Of a stretch of DNA of 64,000 bases, positions 5,424 through 50,527 are shown in pieces. This stretch comes from Sphingomonadaceae bacterium (GTDB lineage: Bacteria; Pseudomonadota; Alphaproteobacteria; Sphingomonadales; Sphingomonadaceae), in NCBI GenBank assembly GCA_947463325.1, contig CANHQT010000010.1:962-64961 (forward strand), given 5' to 3'. A program made the translations under genes and the position numbers. Positions within the stretch are counted from its first letter, which is position 1. Each line of letters starts with the position of its first letter. Below the pieces are notes generated by a model. It saw only the letters and a program-made list of their open reading frames with translations. It was not told the DNA's origin and searched no databases.

Positions 5424-5500
5424 GCGCCCGTAGCTCAGCTGGATAGAGCACGTGACTTCTAATCTCGAGGCCGCAGGTTCGACTCCTGCCGGGCGCGCCA
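5424..5500 (+). tRNA. tRNA-Arg (anticodon TCT)
   Basis: Cloverleaf folded by hand. The acceptor stem GCGCCCG/CGGGCGC is a perfect 7 bp. D arm is GCTC-AGCTGGATA-GAGC, anticodon loop CTTCTAA, T arm GCAGG-TTCGACT-CCTGC, and CCA is encoded. Confidence 0.9.
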
Positions 5501-5508: not shown

Positions 5509-6207
5509 TCAGGATGAGAGGCCGACTGCCGCGCCTGCCAGCAGCGTGAAGGGCAGAGCCAGCGCGAGCATTGTGCCGAAGGGGATTTGCGCCTCTGCGG
5601 TGCCCTTGCCCCGGGCTATCGCCAATAGCGCCAGCACAAGACCCGCGAGTGCGGCGAGCAGCAGCATCAGTGGCAGCAGTGCCCAACCGGTCCATGCAGC
5701 AATGGCCCCGACGAAAGGCGGGTCGCCCCCGCCCATGCCTTCGCGGCCGCGGATAGCGCGGAACAATCGCGCGATGATCCACAGGCCGCCCCAGCCTGCA
5801 GCCGCACCGATCAGCCGATCCGTGAAGCTGGCGTCCATACCGGCTGCTGCCATGGCCCATCCGCCGATGGCCAGACCGCAGCCGAGGATCACCCAGCTCA
5901 GCCGGTGCGGCAGCCAATGATGGCGGGCATCAAGCAGCCCGGCGGTGAGCGCCAGCCAGCCCAGCAGCGCCAGCGCCGCGCCATTCCAGTCAGGGGATAA
6001 GGCCATCGCACCGGCACCGATCACCGCAGACGCGGCTTCGGTCAGCGGATGGAGCGGATCGATCCGCCCGCCGCAGCGGCGGCATTTGCCCGCCTGTGCC
6101 GCCCAGCTGAGCAGCGGAATCAGTTCGTGCACACGCAGCGATGACCCACAATGGTCACAGCGCGATCCACCCCGCAGGATGGTGATGCCTCTGGGCCAAC
6201 GCAGCAC
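5509..6207 (-). CDS. gspO: prepilin leader peptidase/N-methyltransferase GspO (A24 family); the start is uncertain (see findings)
   Basis: Cys-rich CxxC...CxxC segment (RCDHCG...CRRCGG), polytopic membrane body, last gene of the gsp operon. The conserved N-terminal helix lies upstream of the GTG start at 6207. Confidence 0.8.
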   Translation of the reverse strand: MLRWPRGITILRGGSRCDHCGSSLRVHELIPLLSWAAQAGKCRRCGGRIDPLHPLTEAASAVIGAGAMALSPDWNGAALALLGWLALTAGLLDARHHWLPHRLSWVILGCGLAIGGWAMAAAGMDASFTDRLIGAAAGWGGLWIIARLFRAIRGREGMGGGDPPFVGAIAAWTGWALLPLMLLLAALAGLVLALLAIARGKGTAEAQIPFGTMLALALPFTLLAGAAVGLSS

Positions 6208-6284
6208 GAGCGTGGCAAGAAAACTGCCGGCGATGAGGCCGGTAGACGCCCCCAGCCCGATGGCCCATTCAAGCGGCAGGCCGT

Positions 6285-6992
6285 TCAGAGCCGGCCCCGC
6301 ATCGTCCGGGTGAAGCCCTCTGCGGTGGGGCCGAAGCCTGCGGCGGAGAGTGCCGCGCCGAGCATCGGATCAGTCGCGCGGATGTGGAGGCGTGCGACAT
6401 AATTGCCCTCAGCATCCACGGTCATCACCAGCCGTTCCATGCCCGATTGTCCCGCCAGCGTCATCGCAAGCTGCCGCCCGTCGCATGACAGAGGCCCGGT
6501 AAGGCCGTTGGCAAGGCCCAGCCCGGCAAGGTTGAGCGCGGGAACCAGCGTGACCTGTCCTGCAGCCTCGCGGCAGGCACCGTCAGCGAATACCACTGTC
6601 GCATCGGCAAGGTCGACCCGCTCGATCATCAAGCTGTCGATCATGCCGCCCATGATGCTGCCGGTCATGCTGCGGATCGCGGTGCGCCTGATACCGCTTT
6701 CAACGATGCCGGTGAGGCCCCGGTCCGCCGCCGTGGCCGGCCGGTCGATGGCGATGCTCGCTCGACCGAGGAATAGCGGCAGAGGGCGCAAGGCCACATC
6801 AAAGGAGCCGAGATCGAGCGCGCCCGCTCGCACCTGTTCGAGCCGGCCGTCCCAGATGGTGCCACCGGCCGCGCGCGCGGCAATGCGTTCGTCATCCGGC
6901 CCGGCGATGGCGAGTGCGAAGCGGAGCGGCAGGAACAGGATCGCGGCTGCGATACCCGCAAGGATCAGCCAGAAACGCCCCTGCCGGGTCAC
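6285..6992 (-). CDS. gspN: type II secretion system protein GspN
   Basis: 235 aa with an N-terminal TM segment and a GTIWDG motif. It sits between gspM and gspO, and its GTG start overlaps the gspM stop (GTGA). Confidence 0.7.
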   Translation of the reverse strand: MTRQGRFWLILAGIAAAILFLPLRFALAIAGPDDERIAARAAGGTIWDGRLEQVRAGALDLGSFDVALRPLPLFLGRASIAIDRPATAADRGLTGIVESGIRRTAIRSMTGSIMGGMIDSLMIERVDLADATVVFADGACREAAGQVTLVPALNLAGLGLANGLTGPLSCDGRQLAMTLAGQSGMERLVMTVDAEGNYVARLHIRATDPMLGAALSAAGFGPTAEGFTRTMRGRL

Positions 6993-7474
6993 GGGCGCCT
7001 CGCCAGCGTGGCGGTGAGCGCAACCGTGCCGTCGGCATTGGGCCGCATCACCAGTTCGCGCGCGACGATGCCCTGTCCTTCGAGCGTATCGATCCAGGCA
7101 AGTGCCGCGCCCGCGCGGGCATTGGCGATGGCGACGGCGGCAGCATCCTGACCCTGAGGTTCGTTGCGCGAGAGAGTGAAGCCGCGCTCGGCCGCTGACT
7201 GGCCGATGACAAGATCGAGTGTCGCGGCCGGGGCCGATGCGGCCGGAGCTGGCTGATCCCCGATGCGGCGCAGCAGCGCGACGCGCGCCATCACCGCACC
7301 GTGCCGGTCAACCGCCTCGGCATGGGCTGCCCCGGCATCAGCGAGTGCGCTGCGCAGCGGCGTGAGGATAAGGAACCAGCCTACCACCAGCGCGGCGAGG
7401 GCACCGGCGATGCCCACCAGCCAGCGCTCGCGCAGCGACAGCGCATCCCACCAGCTCTGCAGCCGTGCGATCAT
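6989..7474 (-). CDS. gspM: type II secretion system protein GspM
   Basis: 161 aa: MIARLQSWWDALSLRERWL... followed by a single TM. ATGA overlap with the gspL stop. Confidence 0.8.
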   Translation of the reverse strand: MIARLQSWWDALSLRERWLVGIAGALAALVVGWFLILTPLRSALADAGAAHAEAVDRHGAVMARVALLRRIGDQPAPAASAPAATLDLVIGQSAAERGFTLSRNEPQGQDAAAVAIANARAGAALAWIDTLEGQGIVARELVMRPNADGTVALTATLARRP

Positions 7475-8610
7475 GGGGCGCTCCTGATGGTGATGTCGGC
7501 GAGCGTGCGGCCGTCGGGTGCGGAGCGGGGCTGGGCGGTGATGCTATAGCCCGCCGCCTGGATCGCGATCAGCACAGGATTAATGTCTTCGGCGCGCGGT
7601 GCCCCCAATGTCGCCGAAAGCGTGCCATCGCCATTCCAGGAGAGGCTGTCGATGGCGACATTGGGCTGCGATTCCATCGCCGTGATCAGGCCGGCGATGA
7701 CGACTGCCGGCCGCGCGGTGCCGGCACCGCGCTGTGCCAGTTCGGCATCAAGCGCGGCAACCGCCTGATCAAGCGGCGGGGCAGGGCGCAGGACTGATGC
7801 AGCGGCTGCCTCCGCTTCGCTGTCGAGGCTGGCGATGTCGGCATGGGTATGGATGAGGCGCGCGACAGCGATAGCGATGCTGACCGCGATGATCAGCGCG
7901 ATGATGGTTGCCGCACGGCGCAGCAGCGCGCGGTCGATCAGCGGGGCGGGCCGCCGGGCGAAGGGGCCGGTGAGCAGCTCTACTGGCGCCGCGACGGCAG
8001 CGGCGATCAGTGCGGATTCAACCTCTGCCTTGCCGGCTTCGCGCAAGGGGGCGTCGCCGATGATGTGCGGGGTCAGCAGCGGATCATCGGCGAAGCTGCT
8101 GTCACGCCCGCGCACGACACGCTCGGGACCGAGTGTGCTGACCACCCAGGCGTTGGCGGGGTCGCCGGGAGCTGCATCGACCAGTGCGACCGCTCCAGCC
8201 GGAACAAGGCTATCGAATGCGAGCTCATGTGTGGCCGCCTCTGCCAGCCATTGCTGCATCGCCGCCAAAGCGACGGCGGCGACCGGTGCACATCCCTCGC
8301 CGTCACGGGGGCCGATGGCGACATGCAGCGTTTCTGGCGGGGCGATGCTTGTCTCGGCAGCGAGGAGGCGTGCGCCGACCTCTGCCTGCCGTTCGCTCAG
8401 CCCCGCAAAGCTGCTCTGATGCAGAATACAGGCGGATGCGGGCGCGATGCCGATGACGCGTGTTTCCCCATCTGGGGCGTCGGCTTGCGCCCAGATTGTC
8501 GGCCAGCCTTCGCCGTGCGCGACGATGCCACCATCGCGCAGACGCCACCAATGCGGGGCATCGCCAGCACGCGCGGCAAGCGCGATGATCAGGGCGTTGG
8601 CGGCGTTCAC
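7471..8610 (-). CDS. gspL: type II secretion system protein GspL
   Basis: 379 aa with a cytoplasmic domain, a single TM (AATIIALIIAVSIAIAV) and a periplasmic domain. Position in the operon fits gspL. Confidence 0.8.
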   Translation of the reverse strand: MNAANALIIALAARAGDAPHWWRLRDGGIVAHGEGWPTIWAQADAPDGETRVIGIAPASACILHQSSFAGLSERQAEVGARLLAAETSIAPPETLHVAIGPRDGEGCAPVAAVALAAMQQWLAEAATHELAFDSLVPAGAVALVDAAPGDPANAWVVSTLGPERVVRGRDSSFADDPLLTPHIIGDAPLREAGKAEVESALIAAAVAAPVELLTGPFARRPAPLIDRALLRRAATIIALIIAVSIAIAVARLIHTHADIASLDSEAEAAAASVLRPAPPLDQAVAALDAELAQRGAGTARPAVVIAGLITAMESQPNVAIDSLSWNGDGTLSATLGAPRAEDINPVLIAIQAAGYSITAQPRSAPDGRTLADITIRSAP

Positions 8611-8616
8611 CCAGGC

Positions 8617-9630
8617 TTATCCTTCACTGCCCCAGCTGCGGCGCACGACGCGGGCGCGCTGACCCTGTTCACCGGCATCAATCAGCGCGCTTGAACCCAA
8701 GGTTACATCCCCCAATCGCACATTCGTCTCCAACCGGAACCAGCGTGTCGTGAGCCGAACCTGGCTGGCGGCATCACCCGGCGGTGCGATACCGCCCAAA
8801 GCAGGATCCGCCCAAAAGCGATTGACGCTGCCATAGCCGCCGCTTGGCCGCGCTGCCAGTGCAGTCCTGGCTTGCGCCGGCGAAATCCGGTTGCCGGTCA
8901 GCATTTGCAGCAGCACCGCTTGCTCTGGCAGCAATGTGTTGACGTTGATGGGGGACAGATCGTCGGCCGGCAGCGCGCAGGTCCAGCGGCTGAGGCGTTG
9001 CGCAAGGGCGGGGGTCATGCCCGCGATCTGCGCCAGTTCACCTGCGCTTGCCATCGGCCGGTCTGCAGTGCGGCGGGCGGGGCTGGCGGCGGCATAGGCG
9101 GAATCTTCCGCGCCATTGGGCATGGCCGACTGGTCAGCATCGATCCAGTCCACTGCGCCTGCCACGATGCGGTCGGCGGTGGCGCGGTCGGTGCCGAGCC
9201 CTTGGAGCAGGGCAGTGAATTGCTGAATCGCGAGCGGGCGGGGCGGCGCAATGCCGCCGCTCTCTCCCGCTTGCGAGGTTGCCACCAGACTGTTGATGTT
9301 GAAGCAATTGCCGCCATCGGTCAGCCGCATTTCCGCCGACCCGCCGGGCAGCGGCAGGGTGAAGGTTCGGCCGTGCCAGCCGCCGTCGAGTGTCACCTGG
9401 CTGTCGTTCGCGGCCAGCAGCGTATCGATGCGGCGCAGCGCCAGCGCTTCTCCGGCCATCGCGAAATGGCGCGCCTGTTCCATTGCGGAGGCGCTCCCCG
9501 CCAGTCGTGTTGCCAGCGTCAATCGCTCGACCGCCGCAGCAGACACCACCGCCATCACCGCCACCAGCAACAGCACGGTGAGCAACGCCGCGCCCCGCTC
9601 GCGGGCGGGAAAGGCAGAGGAAGACTCCAC
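8617..9630 (-). CDS. gspK: type II secretion minor pseudopilin GspK
   Basis: N-terminus is MESSSAFPARERGAALLTVLLLVAVMAVV if GTG 9630 is used. An in-frame ATG at 9729 would read through a palindromic repeat element. The track ORF start at 9864 is an artefactual extension. Confidence 0.8.
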   Translation of the reverse strand: MESSSAFPARERGAALLTVLLLVAVMAVVSAAAVERLTLATRLAGSASAMEQARHFAMAGEALALRRIDTLLAANDSQVTLDGGWHGRTFTLPLPGGSAEMRLTDGGNCFNINSLVATSQAGESGGIAPPRPLAIQQFTALLQGLGTDRATADRIVAGAVDWIDADQSAMPNGAEDSAYAAASPARRTADRPMASAGELAQIAGMTPALAQRLSRWTCALPADDLSPINVNTLLPEQAVLLQMLTGNRISPAQARTALAARPSGGYGSVNRFWADPALGGIAPPGDAASQVRLTTRWFRLETNVRLGDVTLGSSALIDAGEQGQRARVVRRSWGSEG

Positions 9631-9638
9631 ATGCCCAT

Positions 9639-9723
9639 CGTCATTGCGAGCGAAGCGAAGCAATCTAGGGCGGTTTGCGCCTGCTCTGGATTGCCGCGTC
9701 GCCTGCGGCTCCTCGCAATGACG
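9639..9723. repeat. imperfect palindromic (REP/MITE-like) element in the gspJ-gspK spacer
   Basis: The 12-bp termini CGTCATTGCGAG (9639-9650) and CTCGCAATGACG (9712-9723) are perfect reverse complements. An inner GCAATC/GATTGC pair also matches. The arms carry the widespread TCATTGCGAGCGAAGCGAAGCAATC motif. Confidence 0.6.
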
Positions 9724-9731
9724 GTCCATGG

Positions 9732-10394
9732 TCACTGCGGAGCCTCCGGCGGGGGCAGGCCATCGGGACCGACGAGGAAGATCATCGTCAGTGGCCGGGC
9801 GTTGTTCCGGTCGAGAGTGAGTTCTATCGCGCGGGGAAGGCGGGCGGGATTGTCCGCGCTCCACCCATCGCTCCAGCCGCCGTCGGCATTGCGCACACGC
9901 CAGCGAGCGCCGGTGACATCGCGTACCAGCACTGCGGCTACCCCTTCGCCGCCGCCATCCACCGCCTGCGTGCTGCGGCGGACGAAATTGCCGTTTTCCA
10001 GCGTGTAGCGGGTGCGTTCGAGCCGCTCGATCCCGGCATCGTCGCTTGCCGCATGGGTGAAGGCGATGCCGCCGCCGTCCGTCACAAAGGCGGTTTGCGG
10101 TGCGCCGCTCGCGTCGCGCACCGCACGCGGCTGGGCGCTGGCGAGGTCGGCGGATAGCAGGGCGCGCGTGCGCAGGATTGCGCTGCCCTCTCCCAAGCGT
10201 TCGGACACGACGATTTGCGTATCGACGCTGGAGCGCAGCAGCATGACCCCCGCCGCCGAAACGAGCGCGAAGATCGCCAGCGCGACCAGCATTTCCACCA
10301 GCGTGAAGCCGTGTTCGGCGGAACGCCGCACGGGCGTGAAGCCGTGTTCGGCGGAACGCCAGGAGGAGGTGAATTCACGCTCCGACCGCGTCAT
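9732..10394 (-). CDS. gspJ: type II secretion minor pseudopilin GspJ
   Basis: Prepilin motif G|FTLVEMLVALAIFALV. ATG 10394 overlaps the gspI stop (ATGA). An alternative GTG at 10331 gives the classic short leader MRRSAEHG|FTLVEM. Confidence 0.8.
   Translation of the reverse strand: MTRSEREFTSSWRSAEHGFTPVRRSAEHGFTLVEMLVALAIFALVSAAGVMLLRSSVDTQIVVSERLGEGSAILRTRALLSADLASAQPRAVRDASGAPQTAFVTDGGGIAFTHAASDDAGIERLERTRYTLENGNFVRRSTQAVDGGGEGVAAVLVRDVTGARWRVRNADGGWSDGWSADNPARLPRAIELTLDRNNARPLTMIFLVGPDGLPPPEAPQ
10301..10360 (-). repeat. in-frame 33-bp-period tandem duplication inside the gspJ leader
   Basis: The 27-bp string GCGTGAAGCCGTGTTCGGCGGAACGCC occurs at 10301-10327 and again at 10334-10360, separated by GCACGG. 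It encodes RSAEHGFT twice. Confidence 0.9.
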
Positions 10395-10762
10395 TGTGCG
10401 GTCCGGATGATGGTCAGCGTCGCGCGGCCCCCACCGCCACTGGCGGTGATGTCTATGCGCAGCAATTCGGGATCGGCGGTCGGGCGGACATTGCGGGTGA
10501 CGCGCCATGTGCGCCCGGCGTTGCTCACAGTTTCGCTGGCGCCGCCGGTTGCGGGCGGGGCAGGATCGCTGGCGATGGTCGCCGCGACATTGGCAGCGAC
10601 GATCCCGGCGAGCGCATCGTCATTGAGATCCGCCGCTCCGCGCACGGTGAAGGCATCGAGCCGCACCAGAGCGAGTGCCGCGATGCTCAGCACCGCCAGC
10701 GCCACCAGCATTTCGAGCAGCGTGAAGCCCTGTTCCGATGGTGTCCGCACGCGCCGTTTCAT
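10391..10762 (-). CDS. gspI: type II secretion minor pseudopilin GspI
   Basis: MKRRVRTPSEQG|FTLLEMLVALAVLSIAAL prepilin N-terminus, 123 aa. Confidence 0.85.
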   Translation of the reverse strand: MKRRVRTPSEQGFTLLEMLVALAVLSIAALALVRLDAFTVRGAADLNDDALAGIVAANVAATIASDPAPPATGGASETVSNAGRTWRVTRNVRPTADPELLRIDITASGGGGRATLTIIRTAQ

Positions 10763-11220
10763 CGCACGCTCACGTCGCCCGCGCCGTCAATGATGACGCT
10801 CGCCTCGGTACCGCTGCGGGCGATGGTGATGGTGGCGCTCCGGTCAGGCAGGCCGACCCGGTCAAAGCTGACCCGTCCGGTTGCCGCGCCGCTGATGCTC
10901 GCCGCGGTTCCTTCGCGCCAGTCGTCACGCGACAGCCGGCCATCGGCGATCGGTTGCCACTCCGGCCCTTGATCGGTCCGGATGCGCCGTTCGAACCCGT
11001 AGCCGGAGGGCGAGACCCACAAGCCGTGCGTGCGTCCTTCGATGATTGCGCGGTCCCGCAAGGCCGCGACGCGTGCGGCGAGTTGCACGGCATCGGCGCG
11101 CGCGTTGCCGCCGGGCGGAGCCATGGTCAGAACGACGACACTCGCAGCCAGCCCGATCAGGGCGAGCACGATCATCAATTCAATGAGCGTGAAGCCGCGT
11201 TCGTCGGACCAGCCGGGCAC
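10759..11220 (-). CDS. gspH: type II secretion minor pseudopilin GspH
   Basis: (GTG)PGWSDERG|FTLIELMIVLALIGL prepilin N-terminus, 153 aa. Confidence 0.8.
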   Translation of the reverse strand: MPGWSDERGFTLIELMIVLALIGLAASVVVLTMAPPGGNARADAVQLAARVAALRDRAIIEGRTHGLWVSPSGYGFERRIRTDQGPEWQPIADGRLSRDDWREGTAASISGAATGRVSFDRVGLPDRSATITIARSGTEASVIIDGAGDVSVR

Positions 11221-11223
11221 AGA

Positions 11224-11715
11224 TCACCCTTCGCTGCCGTAAATGTCGGCATTCTCGTTTTCGCCACCGGGCGCCCCATCCGCGCCAAGCGAATAGACGC
11301 TGAACGGCGCGCCATCCTGCCCCGGCACAGCGAGCTGATACGGGCGGCCCCAGGGATCTTCGGGCAGGCTGCGGACATAGCCGCCGGGGCGATAGCGCGA
11401 TGGATCGGCAAGGCCGGCCGGAGCTGCCCTGAGTGCGGCGAGCCCGTCAGCCGCATTGGGGTAGGTAAGGTTGTCGAGCCGGTATTGCTCCATCGCCTGT
11501 TCGAGCGTCGCAATGTCGGCGCGCGCCTTGGTCACCATTGCGCGGTCCTGACTCGGCAGGACGTTGATGAGGACGACTGTCGCCAGCAGGCCGACGATGA
11601 ACAGCACGACCATCAGTTCGGTCAGCGTAAAGCCGCGCTCGTCGCGCGGACGGCGCTCCACGGGCGCGCGGTTGCGGGTGAAATCGGCGAACAGGGCAAG
11701 GAGCAGGAGGCGCAT
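11224..11715 (-). CDS. gspG: type II secretion major pseudopilin GspG
   Basis: G|FTLTELMVVLFIVGLLATVV...DRAMVTKARADIATLEQAMEQYRLDN is typical GspG. ATG 11715 gives a 28-aa leader. GTG 11661 would give a 10-aa leader. Confidence 0.9.
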   Translation of the reverse strand: MRLLLLALFADFTRNRAPVERRPRDERGFTLTELMVVLFIVGLLATVVLINVLPSQDRAMVTKARADIATLEQAMEQYRLDNLTYPNAADGLAALRAAPAGLADPSRYRPGGYVRSLPEDPWGRPYQLAVPGQDGAPFSVYSLGADGAPGGENENADIYGSEG

Positions 11716-11717
11716 GG

Positions 11718-12932
11718 TCAGGGGCCCGTCAGTTGCTGGAGCTGCAGGATCGGCAGCAGGATGGAAAGGATGATAAGCGCGACGATGACGCCCATGACGA
11801 CGATGATGAGCGGTTCGAGCAGCGCCATCGCGGTCGCGGTGAACCGGTCGAACTCATTCTCGAGATAGTCGGCCGCGCGCTCCAGCATCACTTCGAGCCG
11901 ACCCGAGCTTTCCCCGCTGGCGGCGAGATAGACCAGCAGCGGCGGGAAAATCTTGGCATCGCGCATGGCGGCAGAAAGGCTGCCACCGCCGCGCACCTGT
12001 TCGACGATGCTCTCCGTCGCTTCGGCAAGACGGCGGTTGCGGATGGTGGGGATGGTGAGGCGCAGTCCTTCGACCAGCGGCAAGCGGCTCGACACCATGG
12101 TCGAGAGGGTGCGGGCGAAGCGGGCGGCGTGCAGATCGCGCAGCAGCCGCCCGATCAGCGGCAGTTTGAGAAGCCGGCTGTCGAAGGCGAGGCGGAAGGC
12201 GGGGCGGCGCAGCAGTGCGGCAAAGCCGGCACCCGCGGCAGCCAGTGCAAGCAGCGCCAGCCACCACCAATTGGCAGCAATGTCAGACAAAGCGATGACG
12301 ATGCGGGTGAGCAGCGGCAATTGCTGGCCCACCGTGTCAAACTGTTCGACCACGCGCGGCACCACCCAGATCATCAGCGCAGCGACCACCAGCACCGCGA
12401 CGGTCGCAAGCACGATCGGATAGGCAAGCGTCGCCATCAGCTTGCCGCGCACCTCCGCCTGCCGTTCGAGTAGCGCGGAGAGGCGATCGAGAATGACCGG
12501 CAGCGAGCCTGAGCTTTCGCCGGCGGAGATCATCGCGCGATAGAGCGGCGGAAAGCTTTTCGGCTCACGCCCCATAGCCTCGGCGAGGCGGCGACCCTCG
12601 ACAATGCCTGAGTGGACGGTGCCGATGATGGCGCGAACATGCGCGGCCTCCGACTGGCGGGAGGACGTGCGCAGCGCCTCTTCGAGCGGACTGACTTCTG
12701 TCAGCGTCGCAAGCTGGCGGGTGAACAGTGCGAGTTCACGGTGGGAAAGCCTGTTGCGCTCAAGGGTCAGCAGCGCCTTTTTCGGTTCCGGTGGCGCACC
12801 CGGCGCACATTCTATGACGAACAGCCGTTTCTGCGCGAGCGCGGCGCGCGCGGCCTCCCGATCGGGCGCGTCGATATGGCCGCGCTTTTCGCGACCAGCA
12901 GGATCAACGGCGAGGTAGCGGAAATCAGCCAT
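11718..12932 (-). CDS. gspF: type II secretion inner-membrane platform protein GspF
   Basis: MADFRYLAVDPAGREKRGHIDA... with duplicated GspF domains and 3 TM segments. ATG 12932 overlaps the gspE 3' end. The track ORF start at 13085 is an extension. Confidence 0.9.
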   Translation of the reverse strand: MADFRYLAVDPAGREKRGHIDAPDREAARAALAQKRLFVIECAPGAPPEPKKALLTLERNRLSHRELALFTRQLATLTEVSPLEEALRTSSRQSEAAHVRAIIGTVHSGIVEGRRLAEAMGREPKSFPPLYRAMISAGESSGSLPVILDRLSALLERQAEVRGKLMATLAYPIVLATVAVLVVAALMIWVVPRVVEQFDTVGQQLPLLTRIVIALSDIAANWWWLALLALAAAGAGFAALLRRPAFRLAFDSRLLKLPLIGRLLRDLHAARFARTLSTMVSSRLPLVEGLRLTIPTIRNRRLAEATESIVEQVRGGGSLSAAMRDAKIFPPLLVYLAASGESSGRLEVMLERAADYLENEFDRFTATAMALLEPLIIVVMGVIVALIILSILLPILQLQQLTGP

Positions 12933-14427
12933 CGGCGGTTTCGGGTTCCGCCTCGCGCCGCGAGATGCGGATGGCTTCCTCGGGCGTGGTTTCGCCAGCC
13001 CGGACAAGCGCGCGTGCCGCCGAACCCAGCGTCGGCGCATGCAGGAAGGCGTGGCGGGCGATGATTGCCTCATCGCCGCCGTCATTGATCAGGCGGCGGA
13101 TAGTCTCATCGACCTTGAGCGCCTCAAACACGCCGATGCGGCCCTTGTAGCCCGTCTGCCCACATGCCGGGCAGCCATGCGCGCGATAGACGATGGTGCC
13201 GGGGTCGAAGCCGAGCAGGCTGGCAACGCTGCCTTCGGCTTGCACAGGCTCCCGACATTCGGGACACAGCCGCCGCACCAGCCGCTGGGCGATGACGGCG
13301 CGCAGGGAGGAGGCGATGAGGAAGGGTTCGACCTTCATATCGCGCAGGCGGGTGATCGCGCCGATCGCATCATTGGTGTGGACGGTCGACAGCACCAGAT
13401 GGCCGGTGAGCGATGCCTGCACCGCGATATCCGCGGTTTCGCGGTCGCGGATTTCGCCGACCATCACCACGTCCGGATCCTGGCGCAGGATCGCGCGCAA
13501 ACCGGCGGCGAAGCTCAAACCCACCTTGGCATTGACCTGTGTCTGACCGACGCCATCGACCGCATATTCCACCGGATCTTCGACGGTCAGGATATTGCGG
13601 CTGCCGTCATTCAATATCTTGAGCGCGGCATAAAGCGTCGTCGTCTTGCCCGATCCTGTCGGACCGGTGACGAGGATGATGCCATTGGGTTCGGCGAGCG
13701 CGCCGCGCAATATGGTGTCCGCCGCACCGTTAAGGCCGAGCAGGTCGAAATCGATGCCTGCCGTATCCTTGTCGAGCAAGCGCAACACCACCCGTTCACC
13801 GGCGCGGCTGGGCAGGGTCGAGACGCGCACGTCGAGGCTCTTGCCACCAAGTGTCAGGCCGATGCGGCCATCCTGCGGCACGCGCCGCTCGGCGATATCG
13901 AGGCGCGCCATCACCTTGATGCGGCTGACCACCACCGGTGCGACATGCGCCGGCATCTTCAGCACCTCGCGCAGCAGGCCGTCGATGCGCATGCGGACGA
14001 CAAGCGCGCTCTCATAGGGTTCTACATGGATATCCGACACGCCTTGGCGCGCCGCATCGGCGATGATGCCGTTGATGAGGCGGATGGCCGGCGCATCGTC
14101 CGCGCTGTCGAGCAGATCGTCAGCAGTGGGCAGGTCGGTGGCGAGGATATCAAGGCTCGATTCGCCGACTGCGAGCGCGCCTGCGACTGCGGCGTGCGAA
14201 TCCATGGCATAATGGTCTGACAGGAGCTCGTCGAACCGCGCAGCGCTCACGAAATCGACGTCGAAGCCGTGGCCGAGGTGGCGGCGCACCTCAATAAGGA
14301 CACGCGGGTCCGCGCCCTCGCGCAGGGCAATGTGCGTCGCCGCCGGGTTGGCATCGACGATGATCACGCCATGCTTCAGCGCGAAGGCATAGGGGATGTC
14401 GATCGGAGGAGAGGCGATCGGGTCCAT
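12925..14427 (-). CDS. gspE: type II secretion ATPase GspE
   Basis: Walker A GPTGSGKTTT, Asp/His boxes and a C-terminal tetracysteine motif (CPECR...CPACGQTGY). Start is ATG 14427 (MDPIASPP...). Confidence 0.95.
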   Translation of the reverse strand: MDPIASPPIDIPYAFALKHGVIIVDANPAATHIALREGADPRVLIEVRRHLGHGFDVDFVSAARFDELLSDHYAMDSHAAVAGALAVGESSLDILATDLPTADDLLDSADDAPAIRLINGIIADAARQGVSDIHVEPYESALVVRMRIDGLLREVLKMPAHVAPVVVSRIKVMARLDIAERRVPQDGRIGLTLGGKSLDVRVSTLPSRAGERVVLRLLDKDTAGIDFDLLGLNGAADTILRGALAEPNGIILVTGPTGSGKTTTLYAALKILNDGSRNILTVEDPVEYAVDGVGQTQVNAKVGLSFAAGLRAILRQDPDVVMVGEIRDRETADIAVQASLTGHLVLSTVHTNDAIGAITRLRDMKVEPFLIASSLRAVIAQRLVRRLCPECREPVQAEGSVASLLGFDPGTIVYRAHGCPACGQTGYKGRIGVFEALKVDETIRRLINDGGDEAIIARHAFLHAPTLGSAARALVRAGETTPEEAIRISRREAEPETADG

Positions 14428-14431
14428 GGGC

Positions 14432-16603: not shown

Positions 16604-17460
16604 TGGCCTCCGGCGGGCAGGGTGATGGCGATGGGAATAGTCCCTGCTCCGCGCTCGACCTCTAAGCTGAGGCGCGCGCCGGGCTGGACTTGCGAGAGAA
16701 AAGTGGTGGCATCCGACGCAGCGGTGATACGCCGGCCGTTGATGCTGCGGATAACATCACCGCCGCGGAAGCCCGCAGCGGTAAAGGCACGGCCATCACC
16801 GGTCTGGCCGACCGCGATGCCGGTGACACGGCCACCCTCACTGCGCGGCGAAAAACTGATGCCGGCGCGGATCGATTGCTGGCTCAGCGGGGTAGTGCCA
16901 GCAGCGGAGCCCGGCACCTGTGCGGGCGGAGTGGCAATGGCCGGTGCCGCACCGTCGGCGGGGGCGGTACCCGGCGCCTGCGATTGATCAAGATAGAGCA
17001 GCTCACGCCGCCCGGCATTGTCGATTTCGACATGATCGAAATGGACTGCGGCGAGGCGGACGCCCGGCTGGATTTCTTCACCCACGCCAATGCTGGCCTG
17101 AACGCCATCGGCAGTGCCGATGATCGCCGATCCCAGCGAGGTCGCCTGGTTCATGCGCACGCCGAACAACTGGATCTGCAGGCTCGTGACCTGGCTAGTC
17201 CCGGTCGCTGCAGCAGGGGCGGTGCGGTAGAAAGGATCGATGCGTGCAAACAGCTCGGCGCGCGCTTCGGCGGGGATTTCGCTCGCCGATCGCGGGCTCC
17301 AATCCCCCACCGGTCCTGTTGGTGTGAGTATCGCGAACAGGAGCCGAACCGACTGCACCACGAGGATCAGCAGCAGCACGCCGATCAGCAGCTGGCCCAG
17401 CCAGCCACCGGGCAACGCAGCGATGCGTCGGCGCAGGCGCTCGTCGATCATCAACTGCAT
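16600..17460 (-). CDS. gspC: type II secretion protein GspC (with C-terminal PDZ-like domain)
   Basis: N-terminal TM (LLIGVLLLILVV) and a C-terminal PDZ-like segment (GFRGGDVIRSINGRRI). It is the first gene of the operon, and its stop overlaps the gspD ATG. Confidence 0.75.
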   Translation of the reverse strand: MQLMIDERLRRRIAALPGGWLGQLLIGVLLLILVVQSVRLLFAILTPTGPVGDWSPRSASEIPAEARAELFARIDPFYRTAPAAATGTSQVTSLQIQLFGVRMNQATSLGSAIIGTADGVQASIGVGEEIQPGVRLAAVHFDHVEIDNAGRRELLYLDQSQAPGTAPADGAAPAIATPPAQVPGSAAGTTPLSQQSIRAGISFSPRSEGGRVTGIAVGQTGDGRAFTAAGFRGGDVIRSINGRRITAASDATTFLSQVQPGARLSLEVERGAGTIPIAITLPAGGQ

Positions 17461-17508
17461 GGTTTGGCTACTTTCCCCCTTCGGTCGAGTCGCGGCTAGG
17501 CTGGACTC

Positions 17509-17526
17509 ATGACCCTTTGGTGACAG
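17509..17526 (-). promoter_or_regulatory. Pho-box-like site upstream of gspC
   Basis: The minus strand reads CTGTCAC-CAAA-GGGTCAT, two 7-mers 11 bp apart. It is co-oriented with gspC and its proximal end is 48 nt from ATG 17460. Confidence 0.4.
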
Positions 17527-17549
17527 TCAGACTACTCTTATGTTGCAAC

Positions 17550-17578
17550 GCGCGACAAGCCGGTGGGGCTTGCCGCGC
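17550..17578 (-). terminator. GC-rich hairpin downstream of the TonB-dependent receptor gene (no U-tract)
   Basis: GCGCGACAAGCC / GGCTTGCCGCGC form a 12-bp stem with one mismatch and a 5-nt loop, 28 nt past the receptor stop codon. Confidence 0.35.
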
Positions 17579-17605
17579 GCTGGTTGGTTCGGAGCTCTAG
17601 GAGGG

Positions 17606-20335: not shown

Positions 20336-20377
20336 TGGATGTCCCCCGGCAGATATTGTGTGTTGAAAGTGCCAAGC

Positions 20378-20410
20378 GGGGGACGGCGGGCCATGCGGCC
20401 GCCGTCCCCC
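20378..20410 (-). other. intercistronic stem-loop between the lipoprotein gene and the TonB receptor gene
   Basis: GGGGGACGGCGG (20378-20389) pairs perfectly with CCGCCGTCCCCC (20399-20410), with a 9-nt loop and no U-tract. Confidence 0.5.
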
Positions 20411-20434
20411 ATCATGTCAGGGTAGGCGGCCAGA

Positions 20435-21979: not shown

Positions 21980-22088
21980 GAATCAAGGCTCCGGGTAGAT
22001 GTGCGAAAACTCAGACTCGCAGCGCCCGGGGATATGGATCAGCCCCTCACCCCCAGGCGGCTGCCGGGGGAGCGTCTAGGATGGCTTC

Positions 22089-22172
22089 ATGACTCTGCCG
22101 TGCCATTTCAGTGACACCGCGGTTGCATCTGCATGACGCAACAATGACTTATAGATTGCAGTCCTGTGACAC
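22089..22172 (-). promoter_or_regulatory. array of eight 11-bp-phased Pho-box-like half sites (four tandem boxes)
   Basis: Plus-strand pentamers ATGAC, GTGCC, GTGAC, GTTGC, ATGAC, ATGAC, ATTGC, GTGAC start at 22089, 22100, 22111, 22122, 22133, 22144, 22155 and 22166. Confidence 0.5.
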
Positions 22173-22182
22173 AGGCATAGGC

Positions 22183-22219
22183 AAACGGGCCGGATCGCCC
22201 CCCGGCGACCGGCCCGTTT
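22183..22219 (-). terminator. rho-independent-type terminator after the TPR-like gene (A/T-flanked, potentially bidirectional)
   Basis: AAACGGGCCGG / CCGGCCCGTTT form an 11-bp stem, extended by TCGCC/GGCGA. It lies 19 nt downstream of the stop at 22238. Confidence 0.6.
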
Positions 22220-22237
22220 TGCTGGATTGATGGTGGT

Positions 22238-22621
22238 TTAGCGTGCGGCGAGCGCTGGCATCATGCGGCTCAGCGCGCGGCGAGCAACATCACGGCTGTT
22301 CGCCACTTCGCCATTGGCGAGTTCGAGCATCACATCCCGGCGATGGTCGCGCACTGTTTCGAACAGGCGCTGAGCCGATTGGATGCGCCCCGTGCGCATG
22401 TGGATATAGCCAAGATTGATCAGCCGTGCCGGATCATCGGCGGCTATCCCTTGGGCTGATTCGATCTGCACTTCGGCGGTGCGCAGATCATTGTCGCGCA
22501 AAGCATCATAGCCCAGCGAGCCGCGCGCATATCCGATTTCGCCCTGTGCTGTCTGGGCCATGGCTGTGCCGCCAAGGGCTGATGCACCGAGCGCGATGGC
22601 GAGTGTCAAAGCCTTCATCAC
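22238..22621 (-). CDS. small exported TPR-like protein
   Basis: Signal peptide MKALTLAIALGASALGGTAMA|Q and helical repeat-like segments (LINLGYIHMRTGRIQSAQRLFE). The track uses GTG 22621. ATG 22618 is more likely. Confidence 0.7.
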   Translation of the reverse strand: MMKALTLAIALGASALGGTAMAQTAQGEIGYARGSLGYDALRDNDLRTAEVQIESAQGIAADDPARLINLGYIHMRTGRIQSAQRLFETVRDHRRDVMLELANGEVANSRDVARRALSRMMPALAAR

Positions 22622-22652
22622 CCTTCTCCCAATTCCGTGCGTTGGGGGAAGA

Positions 22653-22670
22653 ATGACAGTTTAATGACAT
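22653..22670 (-). promoter_or_regulatory. near-consensus Pho box upstream of the TPR-like gene
   Basis: The minus strand reads ATGTCAT-TAAA-CTGTCAT. Its proximal end is 34 nt from ATG 22618, and GGGAGAAGGG precedes the start codon. Confidence 0.45.
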
Positions 22671-22691
22671 CAATGCAACATTTCTGTCATA

Positions 22692-24311
22692 TTAGCCGGC
22701 AAGCTGGTTCCGGCCGCGCAAAACATGGCGGTTGGCAGTGGTCGCCATTGCTGTTTCAGGGCTGCGTACGCTGTCCCACATCCGCCATTCGCTGCTCGCC
22801 TGATCGGGTGTCAGCGTGACCGCCAGATAGCCGCGCCGTGAAGTATCGACCCAATTGAGTGCCGGGTTGGCGGAGCGCAGCGCGGCAGCCACGGTCGCCG
22901 GCGGGACCGGGAAATAGGATTCGATGCCGGGCGAGGTCACACCGGGTGTTGCAAACTCGACACCGGCAGCGCGCCCGCCATTGTCGAGATCAAAGCCCCA
23001 GCCATTGTGGCTGTCCCCCGTCAGCACGACGAGGTTGGCCCCCGCCGCCTGTGCAGCGCCCAGCAACCTTGCGCGGGCCGCAGGATAGCCATCCCATGCG
23101 TCGAGGTTGAGCGGCAGGCCGACGGAGGCAACCATCGCCGCCGCGCCCGCCCGTCGCCGTACAATCTCCGGCGCATCGGCAGGGATCCAGCTCGAAAGCT
23201 CGCGCGGCGCGTTGAGCCGCCCCATGATCACTTGCTGCGCCACAATCTGCCAGCGGGTCCCGGCGCGGGCGGAACCGGCGATCAGTCCTTCGATCCATGC
23301 TTCCTGCTCGGCGCCCAGCATCGATCGGGCAGTGTCCTGCCAATCGCCATCACGGAACCGCGTGAGTGCCGCGCCCAGCTCCCCGCCGGACAGGCCCGAG
23401 ATCAGCCGCTGGTAATCATGCGGCTGGTCTCGCCCGATGATGCGGGTGTCGGGCAGGGCGATCGTCGCCAGCGTGCCGATCTGGTAGCTGCGCCAGCGCG
23501 CATCGCTGACCGGCATCCATTCCTGCCACGCTTGAAGCGCCGCGCGGCGCCGTGCCATCCAGTCGCCTTCGCTGTCCGGATTGTGGTTTTCCGCGCCGCC
23601 CGACCAGGCATCATTGGCGAACTCATGATCGTCCCACATGGCGATCATCGGCATCTGCTGATGAAGCTGCTGCAACGCCGCATCGCTGCGATAGCTGGCG
23701 TAGCGCAGGCGATAGTCGGCGAGTGCGACCGTAGCGTGCAGTGGCAGCATCTCGCGCCCCGGCAGCGGCCGGTCCGGGTAGGAGCCTTGGGGGTATTCGT
23801 AGATATAGTCGCCGAGGTGGACAGCGAGGTCGATGTCCCCGCGGCGTGCCGCATCGGCATAAGCGTTGAACCAACCAAAGCCGATGTTGGAGCAGGAAAA
23901 GACGCCGAGCCGGAACTGGTCGGCATCGCCTTCGGGCAAAGTGCGGGTCCGCCCGGTGCAGCTCACCGACCCGTCGGGCGCGACGAAGCGGAAATAGTAC
24001 CAGCGCCCCGGCGCAAGGCCATCAACCACAATTTTGGCCGTGTGATCGCGCATCGCCGATGCCGTGACGCTGCTGCCTGCAACGACGCGTGCGAAATCCA
24101 AAGTCTCCGCTATCTCTGCGGTCAGGCGCGCTTCGCCCGAGCTGCTGACGAAGCGTGTCCACAGCAGCACCGAATTTGCCGACGGCTCACCGCTCGCCAC
24201 GCCATGGGTAAAGCCGCGCGCGGCGACGATCTGCGCTGCGCCGGGCACCGCCAGCGCGCCAGTTCCCAATGCAGCGAGCTTGATCAGCAGACGGCGGTCG
24301 ATGGCATTCAT
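22692..24311 (-). CDS. phoD: alkaline phosphatase D (PhoD family), Tat-exported
   Basis: Twin-arginine signal MNAIDRRLLIKLAALGTGALAVPGAAQ and PhoD-like metallophosphatase motifs (GDYIYEY, WDDHEFAND, VVLTGDSHN). Start is ATG 24311. Confidence 0.9.
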   Translation of the reverse strand: MNAIDRRLLIKLAALGTGALAVPGAAQIVAARGFTHGVASGEPSANSVLLWTRFVSSSGEARLTAEIAETLDFARVVAGSSVTASAMRDHTAKIVVDGLAPGRWYYFRFVAPDGSVSCTGRTRTLPEGDADQFRLGVFSCSNIGFGWFNAYADAARRGDIDLAVHLGDYIYEYPQGSYPDRPLPGREMLPLHATVALADYRLRYASYRSDAALQQLHQQMPMIAMWDDHEFANDAWSGGAENHNPDSEGDWMARRRAALQAWQEWMPVSDARWRSYQIGTLATIALPDTRIIGRDQPHDYQRLISGLSGGELGAALTRFRDGDWQDTARSMLGAEQEAWIEGLIAGSARAGTRWQIVAQQVIMGRLNAPRELSSWIPADAPEIVRRRAGAAAMVASVGLPLNLDAWDGYPAARARLLGAAQAAGANLVVLTGDSHNGWGFDLDNGGRAAGVEFATPGVTSPGIESYFPVPPATVAAALRSANPALNWVDTSRRGYLAVTLTPDQASSEWRMWDSVRSPETAMATTANRHVLRGRNQLAG

Positions 24312-24356
24312 GGTTTTTTTCTCCCAGCGCCTGCGGGACAAGCCCGGGCAGAATAG

Positions 24357-25436
24357 TCAGCCCAGCGCACCCAGCGCCAGCAACCCTGCCGCAAACAGCG
24401 TCAATGTCAGCATGGAGAAATTGAGCAGCAGGACAGTCCGCAGCAATGCGCCGAACCGCGAGCTGCGGTAGGCCCCGCGCAGCTGCCGGTACATATGATA
24501 GGGCGGATAGAATAGCAGGATCATCCCGATCCAGCCGCTGGGCACCGCCGCCGCGCTGGCCAGCCGCAGCAGAATGGCGAGCAGCAGCATGAAGGAGATG
24601 GAATAGGTGATGAACACCAGATGGTCGTACATACCGAAGCGGCGGCTGAACGGATAAAGTAGCCACAGGAATGGCGCGGACAGCGGGATCAACGCCCAGG
24701 CGAATTTATAGGCGTTGTTCTGTACCTTATAGAGCAGCAGTGCCGGATTTTCGTTGGCTTTGCTGATCAGAGCGTCGATTTCCGGCACGCCGGTCGCCGC
24801 ATCGGCAATCGTGAAATTGCGTTCGACCTTTCCATCCTCGGTGCGTTCGATGCCAACCATCCGCTCCGCCGCCGCCAAAGTCGCCCGCTTTTGCTCCAGC
24901 TCGGTTTCGATGGCTGCTGTCGGCCGCCCTGCGGCACGCGCCGTCGCCAGTTCCTGCTCGCTTTCGGCAATGGTTTGGGAAAATTCGCGCTCGATCTGAT
25001 TGACCGTCGTTTGCCGGTCGGCGGCGCTCATCGCTTCAAAACCGCCGCTTCCCACACCCATGGCGCTGAACACGGCAAAGGTCATGAACACCGCGAACAG
25101 GAACAGCGCGAGCGGGGAAATGAAGCGCGCCCGCTCGCCATTGATGTAACGCCGCGTCAGCTCGCCCGGGCGCAGGAACAGCATTGGCAGCGTGCGCCAG
25201 GCCTTGCCTTCGAAATGCAGTACGCTGTGCAATATGTCTTGGCCGAACGCGCCGACCGTGCGGTGGACATGCGCTGCTTGTCCGCAGGCCGGGCAGTAAT
25301 GACTATCGAGGAAATGGCCGCAGTTGAGGCAACGATGCTTGTCGTGGCCGCCGCCGCCACTGCCATGACGTTCGACCGCGCTGGCGAGCATTCCGCCCGT
25401 CACTGCATCGCCCAAGGCTTCGATTTCGCCCGCCAT
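24357..25436 (-). CDS. DUF3667-like membrane protein with N-terminal zinc ribbon
   Basis: CLNCGHFLDSHYCPACGQ is followed by RPGELTRRYINGERARFISPL and several TM segments. ATG 25436 is chosen because the track ORF start at 25886 overlaps proA antisense. Confidence 0.75.
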   Translation of the reverse strand: MAGEIEALGDAVTGGMLASAVERHGSGGGGHDKHRCLNCGHFLDSHYCPACGQAAHVHRTVGAFGQDILHSVLHFEGKAWRTLPMLFLRPGELTRRYINGERARFISPLALFLFAVFMTFAVFSAMGVGSGGFEAMSAADRQTTVNQIEREFSQTIAESEQELATARAAGRPTAAIETELEQKRATLAAAERMVGIERTEDGKVERNFTIADAATGVPEIDALISKANENPALLLYKVQNNAYKFAWALIPLSAPFLWLLYPFSRRFGMYDHLVFITYSISFMLLLAILLRLASAAAVPSGWIGMILLFYPPYHMYRQLRGAYRSSRFGALLRTVLLLNFSMLTLTLFAAGLLALGALG

Positions 25437-25444
25437 GGCTCTTG

Positions 25445-25506
25445 GATAGCATTGCCCGCTTTCCGCGCAAGCACTCTGCCTTGCGCGGACATGCACGAAT
25501 GCTATC
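25445..25506. promoter_or_regulatory. nested inverted repeat in the divergent DUF3667/proA intergenic region
   Basis: The outer pair GATAGCATT (25445-25453) / AATGCTATC (25498-25506) encloses CCGCGCAAG (25463-25471) / CTTGCGCGG (25480-25488). Confidence 0.4.
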
Positions 25507-25515
25507 GCTTGGCCC

Positions 25516-34423: not shown

Positions 34424-34727
34424 GATGGAGCTTTCCCGATCTGGTGAGAGCGCGAAACTAGCAGCCTTCATGCCGCTGCCAAGACTTGCAAATGATGCGC
34501 GCGACTCGGAGAAGCCATTACTGGCTGAAATGCTGGAATTCCCTCGCGATTGGCCCTGAATCAGAGTTGGCCGCTGCCGGTTCCTGCGAATTGCCAATAT
34601 TGAATCGATGAGTCGTTTTACAGCTACGACGAATCGAGTTGCCCATCGCCCGACTAAATTGACGTCACGCGCAAGTCGTGGATTCCTGTAGGTAACTCCA
34701 AATTGGACCAATGGGCAGGGGTCGCCA

Positions 34728-49584: not shown

Positions 49585-49626
49585 GCGCTGACGCATAGCG
49601 GCTTCGACCAAGGAGAGGGAAGGGCG

Positions 49627-50486: not shown

Positions 50487-50504
50487 CCGTCACGGCGCTG
50501 TCAC
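50487..50504 (+). promoter_or_regulatory. Pho-box-like site upstream of glpQ
   Basis: The plus strand reads CCGTCAC-GGCG-CTGTCAC, ending 23 nt before ATG 50528. Confidence 0.4.
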
Positions 50505-50527
50505 GCGCGTGCGCCAAGGGGAAGGTC

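Follow-up and report, generated by a model that had tools for sequence, protein, structure and literature searches.

A probable sphingomonad counterpart of the phosphate-regulated elpS, TonB-dependent receptor and type II secretion locus

Introduction

A 64-kb stretch of DNA from a member of the Sphingomonadaceae, hereafter called the window, carries on its minus strand (5509-25436) a run of genes for a type II secretion system (T2SS), a lipoprotein, a TonB-dependent receptor (TBDR), a small exported protein resembling tetratricopeptide repeat (TPR) proteins, a PhoD-family protein and a DUF3667 membrane protein. The question raised by this locus is whether these genes form a system of their own, and what that system would serve. 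A first-pass annotation had proposed a phosphate-starvation island of five units that it could not match to any described system. In our view the region is likely to be the counterpart, in a sphingomonad, of the PhoB-regulated locus that joins elpS, a TBDR gene and a T2SS of the Xcs/Caulobacter type. Judging from its sequence and by analogy, it is very probably a PhoB-controlled, phosphate-starvation locus combining a T2SS, a TBDR and a beta-helix lipoprotein. The phosphate-starvation part of the earlier proposal is upheld by three Pho-box promoters that are kept in relatives, and by the presence of the Caulobacter orthologues in the PhoB regulon. The window holds no new kind of system; it offers, for a sphingomonad, a clear-cut example in which three separate promoters carry Pho boxes. 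Its interest lies in the pair of ElpS-family lipoprotein and receptor, which is among the most strongly phosphate-induced gene pairs known and occurs in hundreds of genera.

For comparison, 89 loci were assembled: 80 from a one-genome-per-species collection, six from close relatives found by exact-protein look-up, and three reached via the TPR protein. They are labelled with L-numbers and were scored by tblastn with the window proteins.

Results and Discussion

Identity of the lipoprotein and its receptor

In Caulobacter crescentus, the gene cc0170 (elpS) encodes a lipoprotein of ~50 kDa and lies directly upstream of the TBDR gene cc0171, which is itself directly upstream of gspC-N. The same elpS-TBDR-gspC-N order was published in 2010 for Xanthomonas campestris, Sphingomonas (now Sphingopyxis) alaskensis and Hyphomonas neptunium (Le Blastier et al. 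2010, PMC2996285). We therefore cannot agree that the window locus is not a described system; its apparent novelty arose because the lipoprotein had not been recognised as ElpS. The T2SS-dependent lipoprotein of Caulobacter, which the first-pass annotation cited as a precedent, is ElpS itself.

The window lipoprotein begins with MAHFASARTALLAGVASLTLAAC and has the lipobox LAAC with Cys23, followed by the conserved motif CG-AEDIASPGEG, a linker rich in Pro and Thr, and a body of right-handed beta-helix fold. It had no match in a local copy of Pfam or in NCBIfam. There were 2506 relatives at E <= 0.001, and PF28492 (Beta_helix_4) was recorded on 120/120 among the matches listed. Orthology was judged against the proteins of Caulobacter sp. 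BE264 (L026), standing in for C. crescentus CB15. The BE264 lipoprotein is 41% identical to that of the window over its full length (E 2e-112, 526 aligned positions). It shows published features of ElpS, a lipobox at residues 17-20 and Asn at positions 37 and 38, and its gene is followed by those for a TBDR and gspC-D-E-F. Caulobacter ElpS and the window protein share the lipobox, the G-x-D/E-D-I/V-x-SPG motif after it and the Pro/Thr linker. In the window, a gap of 99 bp separates the lipoprotein gene from the receptor gene downstream of it; the receptor shares 46% identity over 872 residues with its counterpart behind the ElpS orthologue of BE264, and it also gave a sub-threshold match to TIGR01782 (TonB-Xanth-Caul). 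Judged by sequence, the window lipoprotein is the orthologue of ElpS and the window receptor that of CC0171/CCNA_00170.

A lipobox was present in nearly all of the 86 ElpS-family homologues examined. Many Cys, Asp, Glu, His and Asn residues were invariant in an alignment of 19 sequences (e.g., HNSSDDGIEWFGG and DDDSLD), which also revealed tandem duplications in some homologues. Many ElpS proteins of Hyphomonas, Rhodospirillaceae and other marine Proteobacteria (loci L010-L012, L019, L033-L035 and others) are tandem beta-helix duplications of 820-900 aa. The motif that follows the lipid-modified Cys, G-[AS]-[DE]-[DE]-[IV]-[AS]-SPG-x-G, is kept across Alphaproteobacteria, and because of this conservation it may serve as a signal for sorting or for docking to the receptor.

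Pho boxes and promoter structure

A PhoB-activated promoter contains at least two CTGTCAT-like direct repeats of 7 bp with an 11-bp period, which replace the -35 element and stand ~10 bp before the -10 element. When the window was scanned with the pattern TGTCAY-N5-TGTCAY, allowing up to two mismatches, 18 matches were found, compared with 8.4 +/- 2.9 in shuffled sequences; none of 100 shuffles reached 18. Three intergenic regions, 473 bp when added up, contain ten of the 18 matches, against an expectation of about 0.06; all but one of the ten lie on the minus strand, co-oriented with the genes downstream. Direct-repeat Pho promoters with 11-bp periodicity are present for the gspC, lipoprotein and TPR genes, but not for phoD or DUF3667. 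For the latter two genes no Pho box was found in the window or in L081, and L087 has a weak out-of-phase site alone.

The Pho box of gspC is followed, after a gap of 8 nt, by the -10-like hexamer CCTAGC (17500-17495). Before the lipoprotein gene lie ~8 GTCAY-like half-sites (about four boxes) in strict 11-bp phase (22171-22089), then again a gap of 8 nt, the -10-like hexamer CCTAGA (22080-22075) and a leader of ~95 nt. We take CCTAGC and CCTAGA to resemble the alphaproteobacterial -10 element. The gspC box is identical in L081, and arrays occur at the corresponding place in L083, L084 and L087. Phased arrays before the lipoprotein gene are kept in L081, L082, L084, L086, L087 and other Sphingomonadales, and boxes also stand before it in L083, L089 and L090. 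A co-oriented site lies within 350 bp 5' of the lipoprotein homologue in 25 of the 80 diverse loci, compared with ~4 expected from the background rate. A Pho box also precedes the TPR gene in most of the loci that carry it: the arrangement TTGCA-n-TGTCAT-n5-TGTMAY is kept in L003, L027, L081, L087, L089 and L090, and in weaker form in L006 and L039. In L081 and L087, Pho boxes stand before all three units. The co-oriented Pho-box-like sites that had been claimed before gspC, the lipoprotein operon and the TPR gene are thus far above chance and kept in relatives.

These numbers bear on the possibility that a general-purpose T2SS lies by chance beside unrelated outer-membrane genes, with accidental Pho-box-like strings between them. 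T2SS clusters are common, and a two-mismatch pattern is expected to give about eight matches per 64 kb. An accident would nevertheless have to account for the crowding of 10/18 matches into 473 bp of promoter DNA, for sites kept in position and phase among relatives, and for a lipoprotein-receptor-T2SS synteny that spans Alpha- and Gammaproteobacteria. We regard such a juxtaposition as barely credible.

The Caulobacter data point in the same direction as the Pho boxes. CCNA_00169 (elpS), CCNA_00170 (receptor) and gsp genes belong to the PhoB regulon and to that direct regulon of PhoB which Lubin et al. mapped by ChIP-seq; read counts for elpS reach about 300,000 in some samples, up from a few hundred or about a thousand (PMC11208175 supplement). 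Induction of the elpS promoter P169 is dependent on PhoB (PMC5172544).

It may be noted that GANTC sites, the targets of CcrM methylation, were frequent in two of the promoter regions. There were two (at 17487-17508) in the 145 bp of the gspC promoter and three (at 21980-22095) in the 258 bp of the lipoprotein promoter and leader, against 1.4/kb over the whole window; one of them overlaps the promoter-proximal Pho half-site (GAGTCAT). In Caulobacter, P169 has four GANTC sites, whose methylation is blocked by MucR until induction by PhoB (PMC5172544).

Fold of the lipoprotein

The AlphaFold2 model of the lipoprotein had a predicted local distance difference test score (pLDDT) of 84 and a predicted template modelling (TM) score (pTM) of 0.84, and was mainly beta-strand, with residues 1-54 (signal peptide and Pro/Thr linker) disordered. 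When the model was compared with the PDB by Foldseek, all the matches were weak (E >= 0.007, TM <= 0.30), and most of them were right-handed beta-helix proteins, i.e., pectin methylesterases, pectate lyases and phage tailspikes. A profile of the lipoprotein matched no PDB sequence at E <= 1, and none of the searches (Rfam, NCBIfam, PDB by sequence and by fold) pointed to a function. The Foldseek matches are weak and reach no further than the fold class, so they do not reveal what the protein might catalyse or bind. The earlier description of an uncharacterised beta-helix-like lipoprotein therefore holds for the beta-helix, as a fold class, but not for the word uncharacterised, the protein being an ElpS orthologue at 41% identity.

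This fold raises the question whether the lipoprotein and the receptor capture and take up a glycan or another carbon source in the manner of SusCD, the lipoprotein being a pectin-lyase-fold protein for binding or hydrolysis and phosphate control being secondary or absent. The right-handed beta-helix, the predominance of polysaccharide-acting enzymes and phage tailspikes among the best (weak) PDB matches, and the suggestion by Lidbury et al. that Flavobacterium homologues may bind plant glycans (PMC8115612) are all in keeping with it. Those matches are, however, uniformly weak and come with no sequence relative found in the PDB, while a strong phased Pho-box array precedes the lipoprotein gene and it is specifically phosphate limitation that induces the homologues of Caulobacter and Flavobacterium (PMC11208175; PMC8115612). 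Glycan uptake is thus a decidedly unlikely function for the pair.

Conservation of the gene neighbourhood

The receptor gene is directly downstream of the lipoprotein gene in 86 of the 89 loci. A T2SS is linked to the pair in 39/75 informative loci, including those of Caulobacter, Brevundimonas, Hyphomonas, Blastomonas, Sphingomonas, Kordiimonas, Xanthomonas and SAR86, and its gsp genes lie downstream of the receptor in all of these but one (L001, upstream). The lipoprotein-receptor-T2SS synteny thus reaches across Alpha- and Gammaproteobacteria. The conserved module is ElpS plus receptor, with the addition of a T2SS of the Xcs/Caulobacter type in about half of the informative loci sampled.

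The other neighbours are far less constant. The TPR gene is adjacent in 13/88 loci (co-oriented in nine), and all those with a taxon name are Sphingomonadales, the remaining three being unclassified metagenome-assembled genomes. PhoD is adjacent in 4/88: L081 and L087, which have the window order, and the Blastomonas loci L006 and L039, where phoD is divergent and lies by the TPR-lipoprotein pair. DUF3667 is adjacent in 3/88 (L081, L082 and L087). In L081 and L087 the complete series is found again (DUF3667, PhoD, TPR, lipoprotein, TBDR, gsp). In L082, whose lipoprotein is 81% identical to that of the window, the order is proA, DUF3667, TPR, lipoprotein, TBDR, gsp, without phoD. Relatives at 65-75% identity have unrelated genes upstream (a small Trans_reg_C protein, a resistance-nodulation-division (RND) efflux system, Porin_O_P, ruvB), and one of them, L086, has no T2SS downstream.

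These counts bear on the proposal of an undescribed, integrated five-unit island, in which the T2SS would secrete PhoD and/or the lipoprotein, the receptor would import the phosphorus compound so released or captured, and the DUF3667 and TPR proteins would be dedicated to the task. The adjacency and common orientation of all the units speak for it, as do the recurrence of the full order in two relatives, the divergent PhoD gene by the TPR-lipoprotein pair in two Blastomonas genomes, and the report that ElpS raises the activity of an unidentified phosphatase (PMC2996285). The core of the island has, however, already been described (PMC2996285); L082 is the same locus without phoD; DUF3667 and phoD have no Pho box in the window or in L081; and other close relatives carry an RND efflux system, Porin_O_P or ruvB upstream. 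The conservation check that the first-pass annotation itself had suggested, run over the 89 loci, showed that the five units are not co-conserved (PhoD 4/88, DUF3667 3/88, TPR 13/88), and we consider the integrated island unlikely. The repeated but uncommon appearance of phosphate-related genes beside elpS (PhoD twice, Porin_O_P once) fits an ordinary clustering of regulon genes, not an obligate machine.

Two of the upstream neighbours may be mentioned individually. In Sphingomonas sp. LY160 (L083:9518-9874), a 118-aa protein whose sole domain is Trans_reg_C (an OmpR/PhoB-type winged helix) is encoded directly 5' of the ElpS homologue, and in Sphingomicrobium flavum (L085:8409-9710), a gene for the phosphate-selective porin Porin_O_P divergently adjoins the ElpS homologue.

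Comparison with related systems

The Caulobacter elpS locus and the window have in common the order lipoprotein, receptor, gspC-D-E-F-G-H-I-J-K-L-M-N and Pho-type control elements upstream. They differ in gspO, which is last and co-oriented in the window but in the opposite orientation in C. crescentus (PMC2996285), and in the Pho-box-driven TPR gene, the PhoD gene with its twin-arginine (Tat) signal and the DUF3667 gene, which lie directly upstream in the window.

The xcs T2SS cluster of Xanthomonas carries the ElpS homologue XAC0692 (PMC7777525). It shares with the window the C-to-N order and, in L008 and L049, an ElpS-family lipoprotein (46-48% identity to that of the window) and a receptor encoded directly upstream. 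Xcs is an accessory second T2SS that was probably acquired horizontally (PMC7777525).

More distant relatives occur in Bacteroidota. In Flavobacterium johnsoniae, the lipoprotein Fjoh_0546 and the TonB-dependent transporter (TBDT) Fjoh_0545 are induced by low phosphate (PMC8115612). Like the window pair, Fjoh_0545/Fjoh_0546 and BT4055/BT4056 of Bacteroides thetaiotaomicron consist of a beta-helix (pectin-lyase superfamily) surface lipoprotein beside a TBDT; they are induced by phosphate depletion, as would be expected of the window pair. Unlike the latter, they show distant homology, lack a T2SS, use other routes of lipoprotein export, have the order TBDT then lipoprotein and lie within a phoBR operon. 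Fjoh_0546 and BT4056 were proposed to act as 'lids' of their transporters or to bind the substrate (PMC8115612; bioRxiv 10.1101/2023.03.17.533168). Price and co-workers reported that homologous pairs of lipoprotein and TBDT occur in 621 genera and proposed the lid role (bioRxiv 10.1101/2023.03.17.533168). No newer functional study of the ElpS family was found in a literature search.

The Hxc system of Pseudomonas aeruginosa is a Pho-regulated T2SS for phosphate acquisition, as that of the window would also be. Its cluster includes genes for a secreted alkaline phosphatase of its own, the substrate LapA, and for the liposecretin HxcQ. In contrast, the window GspD has a standard signal peptide, MTRRFPAALLAATAIVCAAQPALAQ, without a lipobox, and the conserved partners in the window are ElpS and the TBDR, PhoD not being conserved with the cluster. 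The window thus has neither a liposecretin nor a dedicated secreted phosphatase of the LapA type, and its resemblance to Hxc is one of function and not of family membership.

Proposed role

In the arrangement that we favour, the sphingomonad counterpart of the elpS locus would work as follows. Under phosphate limitation, phosphorylated PhoB would bind to the Pho boxes, which replace the -35 element and lie 8 nt 5' of a CCTAG-type -10 element (gspC and lipoprotein), and would turn on the three units that start with gspC, the lipoprotein gene and the TPR gene, as the sequence and the experiments in Caulobacter suggest. If it behaves like Caulobacter ElpS, the lipoprotein would be lipidated and shown on the cell surface, and would later be cut from its anchor in a T2SS-dependent step. 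That lipoprotein and receptor are paired almost without exception suggests that the former may act as the surface partner, or 'lid', of the latter, catching some phosphorus-containing substrate that TonB-powered uptake would then bring in. ElpS of C. crescentus is made on phosphate starvation and is lipidated; its surface exposure is independent of the T2SS, and its release occurs by a cleavage near Asn38 that is T2SS-dependent and sensitive to protease inhibitors (PMC2996285). Overexpression of ElpS increased the alkaline phosphatase activity of the supernatant, although ElpS itself is no phosphatase (PMC2996285).

Several observations weigh against this scheme. PhoB binding, surface exposure and T2SS dependence are expectations carried over from Caulobacter at 41% identity. 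In about half of the informative loci no T2SS is linked to the lipoprotein-receptor pair, and the pair thus has no strict need of one nearby. In Caulobacter, the T2SS is needed for the release of ElpS and not for its display on the surface, and the alkaline phosphatase activity of a delta-elpS mutant was unchanged (PMC2996285). Moreover, the Pho-box pattern finds no site before the elpS orthologue of Caulobacter L026, which indicates that the motif model is imperfect across orders.

The TPR, PhoD and DUF3667 genes

The TPR-like protein has a signal peptide and no lipobox; its match to TPR_19 (E 1.5e-4) is below the cutoff. Its family comprises 273 relatives, and every source name that bears a taxon is that of a Sphingomonadales genus. 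Of four family members looked up, three are encoded directly 5' of an ElpS-receptor pair. The adjoining lipoprotein carries PF28492 in two of these three loci; the third (L090) has no Pfam on record and was recognised by its tblastn match. The fourth member adjoins a gene for a PPK2 polyphosphate kinase. Specific to Sphingomonadales, the TPR gene is an addition to the module and is probably Pho-regulated.

PhoD matched PF09423 (E 5.9e-95) and PF16655 (PhoD_N, E 2.6e-24). Its N-terminus, MNAIDRRLLIK, contains the twin-arginine motif DRRLLIK. It is thus a phosphatase or phosphodiesterase of the PhoD family. Its score against the NCBIfam equivalog AlkPhosPhoDBac was 217, far under the cutoff of 1000; hence it is a member of the family and not an equivalog of the Bacillus PhoD. 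The DUF3667 protein has a CxxC...CxxC motif, read from the sequence, and matched nothing in NCBIfam. Its stop codon lies 45 bp from the ATG of phoD, exactly as had been stated before, and the two genes are probably co-transcribed. PhoD and DUF3667 have no recognisable Pho box; they are lineage-specific neighbours outside the conserved module, and we treat their association with it as loose.

It is improbable that PhoD and/or the TPR protein, the latter presumably periplasmic, were recruited to the ElpS-receptor module in one sphingomonad lineage as genuine partners of ElpS. Were it so, the extracellular activity that ElpS reportedly raises could be that of PhoD as the 'still unknown phosphatase', the TPR protein could be a dedicated accessory (chaperone or pilotin-like) of the ElpS-receptor-T2SS machinery, and the synteny would give the first concrete candidates for biochemical partners of ElpS. 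The TPR gene, which is restricted to a lineage and travels with the pair, and the occasional PhoD neighbour are modest leads on the role of ElpS.

Locus content and transcription units

Open reading frames on the minus strand of 5509-25436 were scanned against the local Pfam copy. All five adjacent minus-strand units of the first-pass annotation were present at the positions that it gave, including 13 gsp genes (C to O). The coordinates are collected in Table 1.

Table 1. Features of the minus-strand locus in the window, in order of position
Feature	Position	Strand	Basis
T2SS operon gspC-D-E-F-G-H-I-J-K-L-M-N-O	5509..17460	-	Pfam match per component
GspO	5509-6207	-	Peptidase_A24
GspN	6285-6992	-	Pfam
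GspM	6989-7474	-	Pfam
GspL	7471-8610	-	Weak Pfam matches, E about 1e-4; position fits
GspG	11224-11715	-	Pfam
Secretin GspD	14432-16603	-	Pfam
GspC	16600-17460	-	T2SSC and PDZ
gspC promoter region	17495..17525	-	Pho box TGTCACcaaagGGTCAT, 17525-17509, 1 mismatch
GC-rich hairpin 3' of receptor gene	17549..17580	-	GCGCGCGGCAAGCC-CCAC-CGGCTTGTCGCGCG, read from sequence
TonB-dependent receptor	17606-20335	-	Plug and TonB_dep_Rec_b-barrel
Strong hairpin between lipoprotein and receptor genes	20378..20410	-	GGGGGACGGCGGCC-GCAT-GGCCCGCCGTCCCCC, read from sequence
ElpS-family lipoprotein, 514 aa	20435-21979	-	Lipobox, full-length homology, PF28492 on relatives
Lipoprotein promoter	22075..22171	-	Phased Pho array and -10-like hexamer
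Exported TPR-like protein, 126 aa	22238-22618	-	TPR_19 below cutoff, signal peptide
TPR-gene promoter	22653..22680	-	Perfect Pho box TGTCATtaaacTGTCAT, 22669-22653 (0 mismatches), and upstream half-site
PhoD	22692-24311	-	PhoD_N and PhoD, twin-arginine motif
DUF3667 zinc-ribbon membrane protein	24357-25436	-	PF12412, E 1e-16

Transcription of the gsp operon runs from 17460 to 5509, with gspO last and co-oriented. Pfam also identified the pseudopilins GspK, GspJ, GspI and GspH, as well as GspF and the ATPase GspE, all on the minus strand. GspL was recognised by matches of 22 and 21 bits, below the curated cutoff, its position and size being in agreement. With this sub-threshold component, the core set of the T2SS is complete (C to M, plus N and the prepilin peptidase O). 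The gsp gene order is identical in the relatives L081-L085.

GC-rich hairpins part the TPR, lipoprotein/receptor and gsp units. The hairpin 3' of the receptor gene is kept in L081 and is likely to be a terminator that parts the receptor unit from the gsp unit; it has no T-tract and was for that reason missed by a simple terminator scan. The strong hairpin between the lipoprotein and receptor genes may be a partial terminator or an mRNA stabiliser. A third hairpin (~22216-22183) follows the TPR gene, which is a monocistronic unit. Simple scans for sigma-70 promoters and intrinsic terminators were uninformative in the high-GC alphaproteobacterial DNA of the window.

A cis-regulatory leader RNA at the lipoprotein gene was considered and rejected, since the window leader folds no better than shuffled sequences (z = -0.52); RNAalifold of four leaders gave a weak helix with little covariation. 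Sequestration of the Shine-Dalgarno (SD) sequence by the block TCCGCATCG...TGCGGAGA, seen in some Sphingomonadales, was likewise rejected, as anti-SD pairing was at chance level (p <= 0.05 for 7/85 leaders; p = 0.77 for the window leader).

Flanking genes and other features of the window

The locus is flanked by housekeeping genes on both sides. On the gspO side lie tRNA-Arg(TCT), a Vut_1 transporter gene and a purQ-like gene. The tRNA-Arg gene (5424-5500, plus strand) is convergent with gspO, stands 9 bp from the gspO stop codon and marks one edge of the locus; a scan of the whole window at Rfam gathering thresholds returned this single tRNA and nothing else. On the DUF3667 side, a proA-like gene (25516-26769, plus strand) is divergent from DUF3667, and beyond it are open reading frames matching nadD, rsfS and rlmH by synteny with L081, then genes for M23 and S41 peptidases. 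The GC content of the window is about 65%, and the locus shows no GC anomaly of the kind that a recently inserted island would leave.

The 79 bp between the divergent DUF3667 and proA-like genes (25437-25515) contain an imperfect palindrome, GATAGCATT ... AATGCTATC, enclosing GTCCGCGCAAG ... CTTGCGCGGA. It is largely kept in L081, is unlike Pho boxes and is possibly the binding site of a regulator.

A gene for a secreted glycerophosphodiester phosphodiesterase (50488-51598, plus strand; GDPD, E 8e-44; likely ATG at 50529) lies 25 kb from the locus. Its product has the signal peptide MMLRSMLCAALAAMLVSPAMA, and the gene is preceded by the Pho-box-like site CGTCACggcgcTGTCAC (50488-50504, 1 mismatch). 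It is probably a further member of the Pho regulon.

The densest cluster of GANTC sites in the window (34400-34800, six sites in 300 bp) covers the 5' end of a DUF885 gene (32645-34711, minus strand) and runs on into the first part of its upstream intergenic region. A local dip in GC content to 0.57 occurs at 48-50 kb, around a short asparaginase-like open reading frame (49087-49611), and a strong positive AT skew of 0.21 at 58-60 kb, over genes for DUF418 and EamA membrane proteins.

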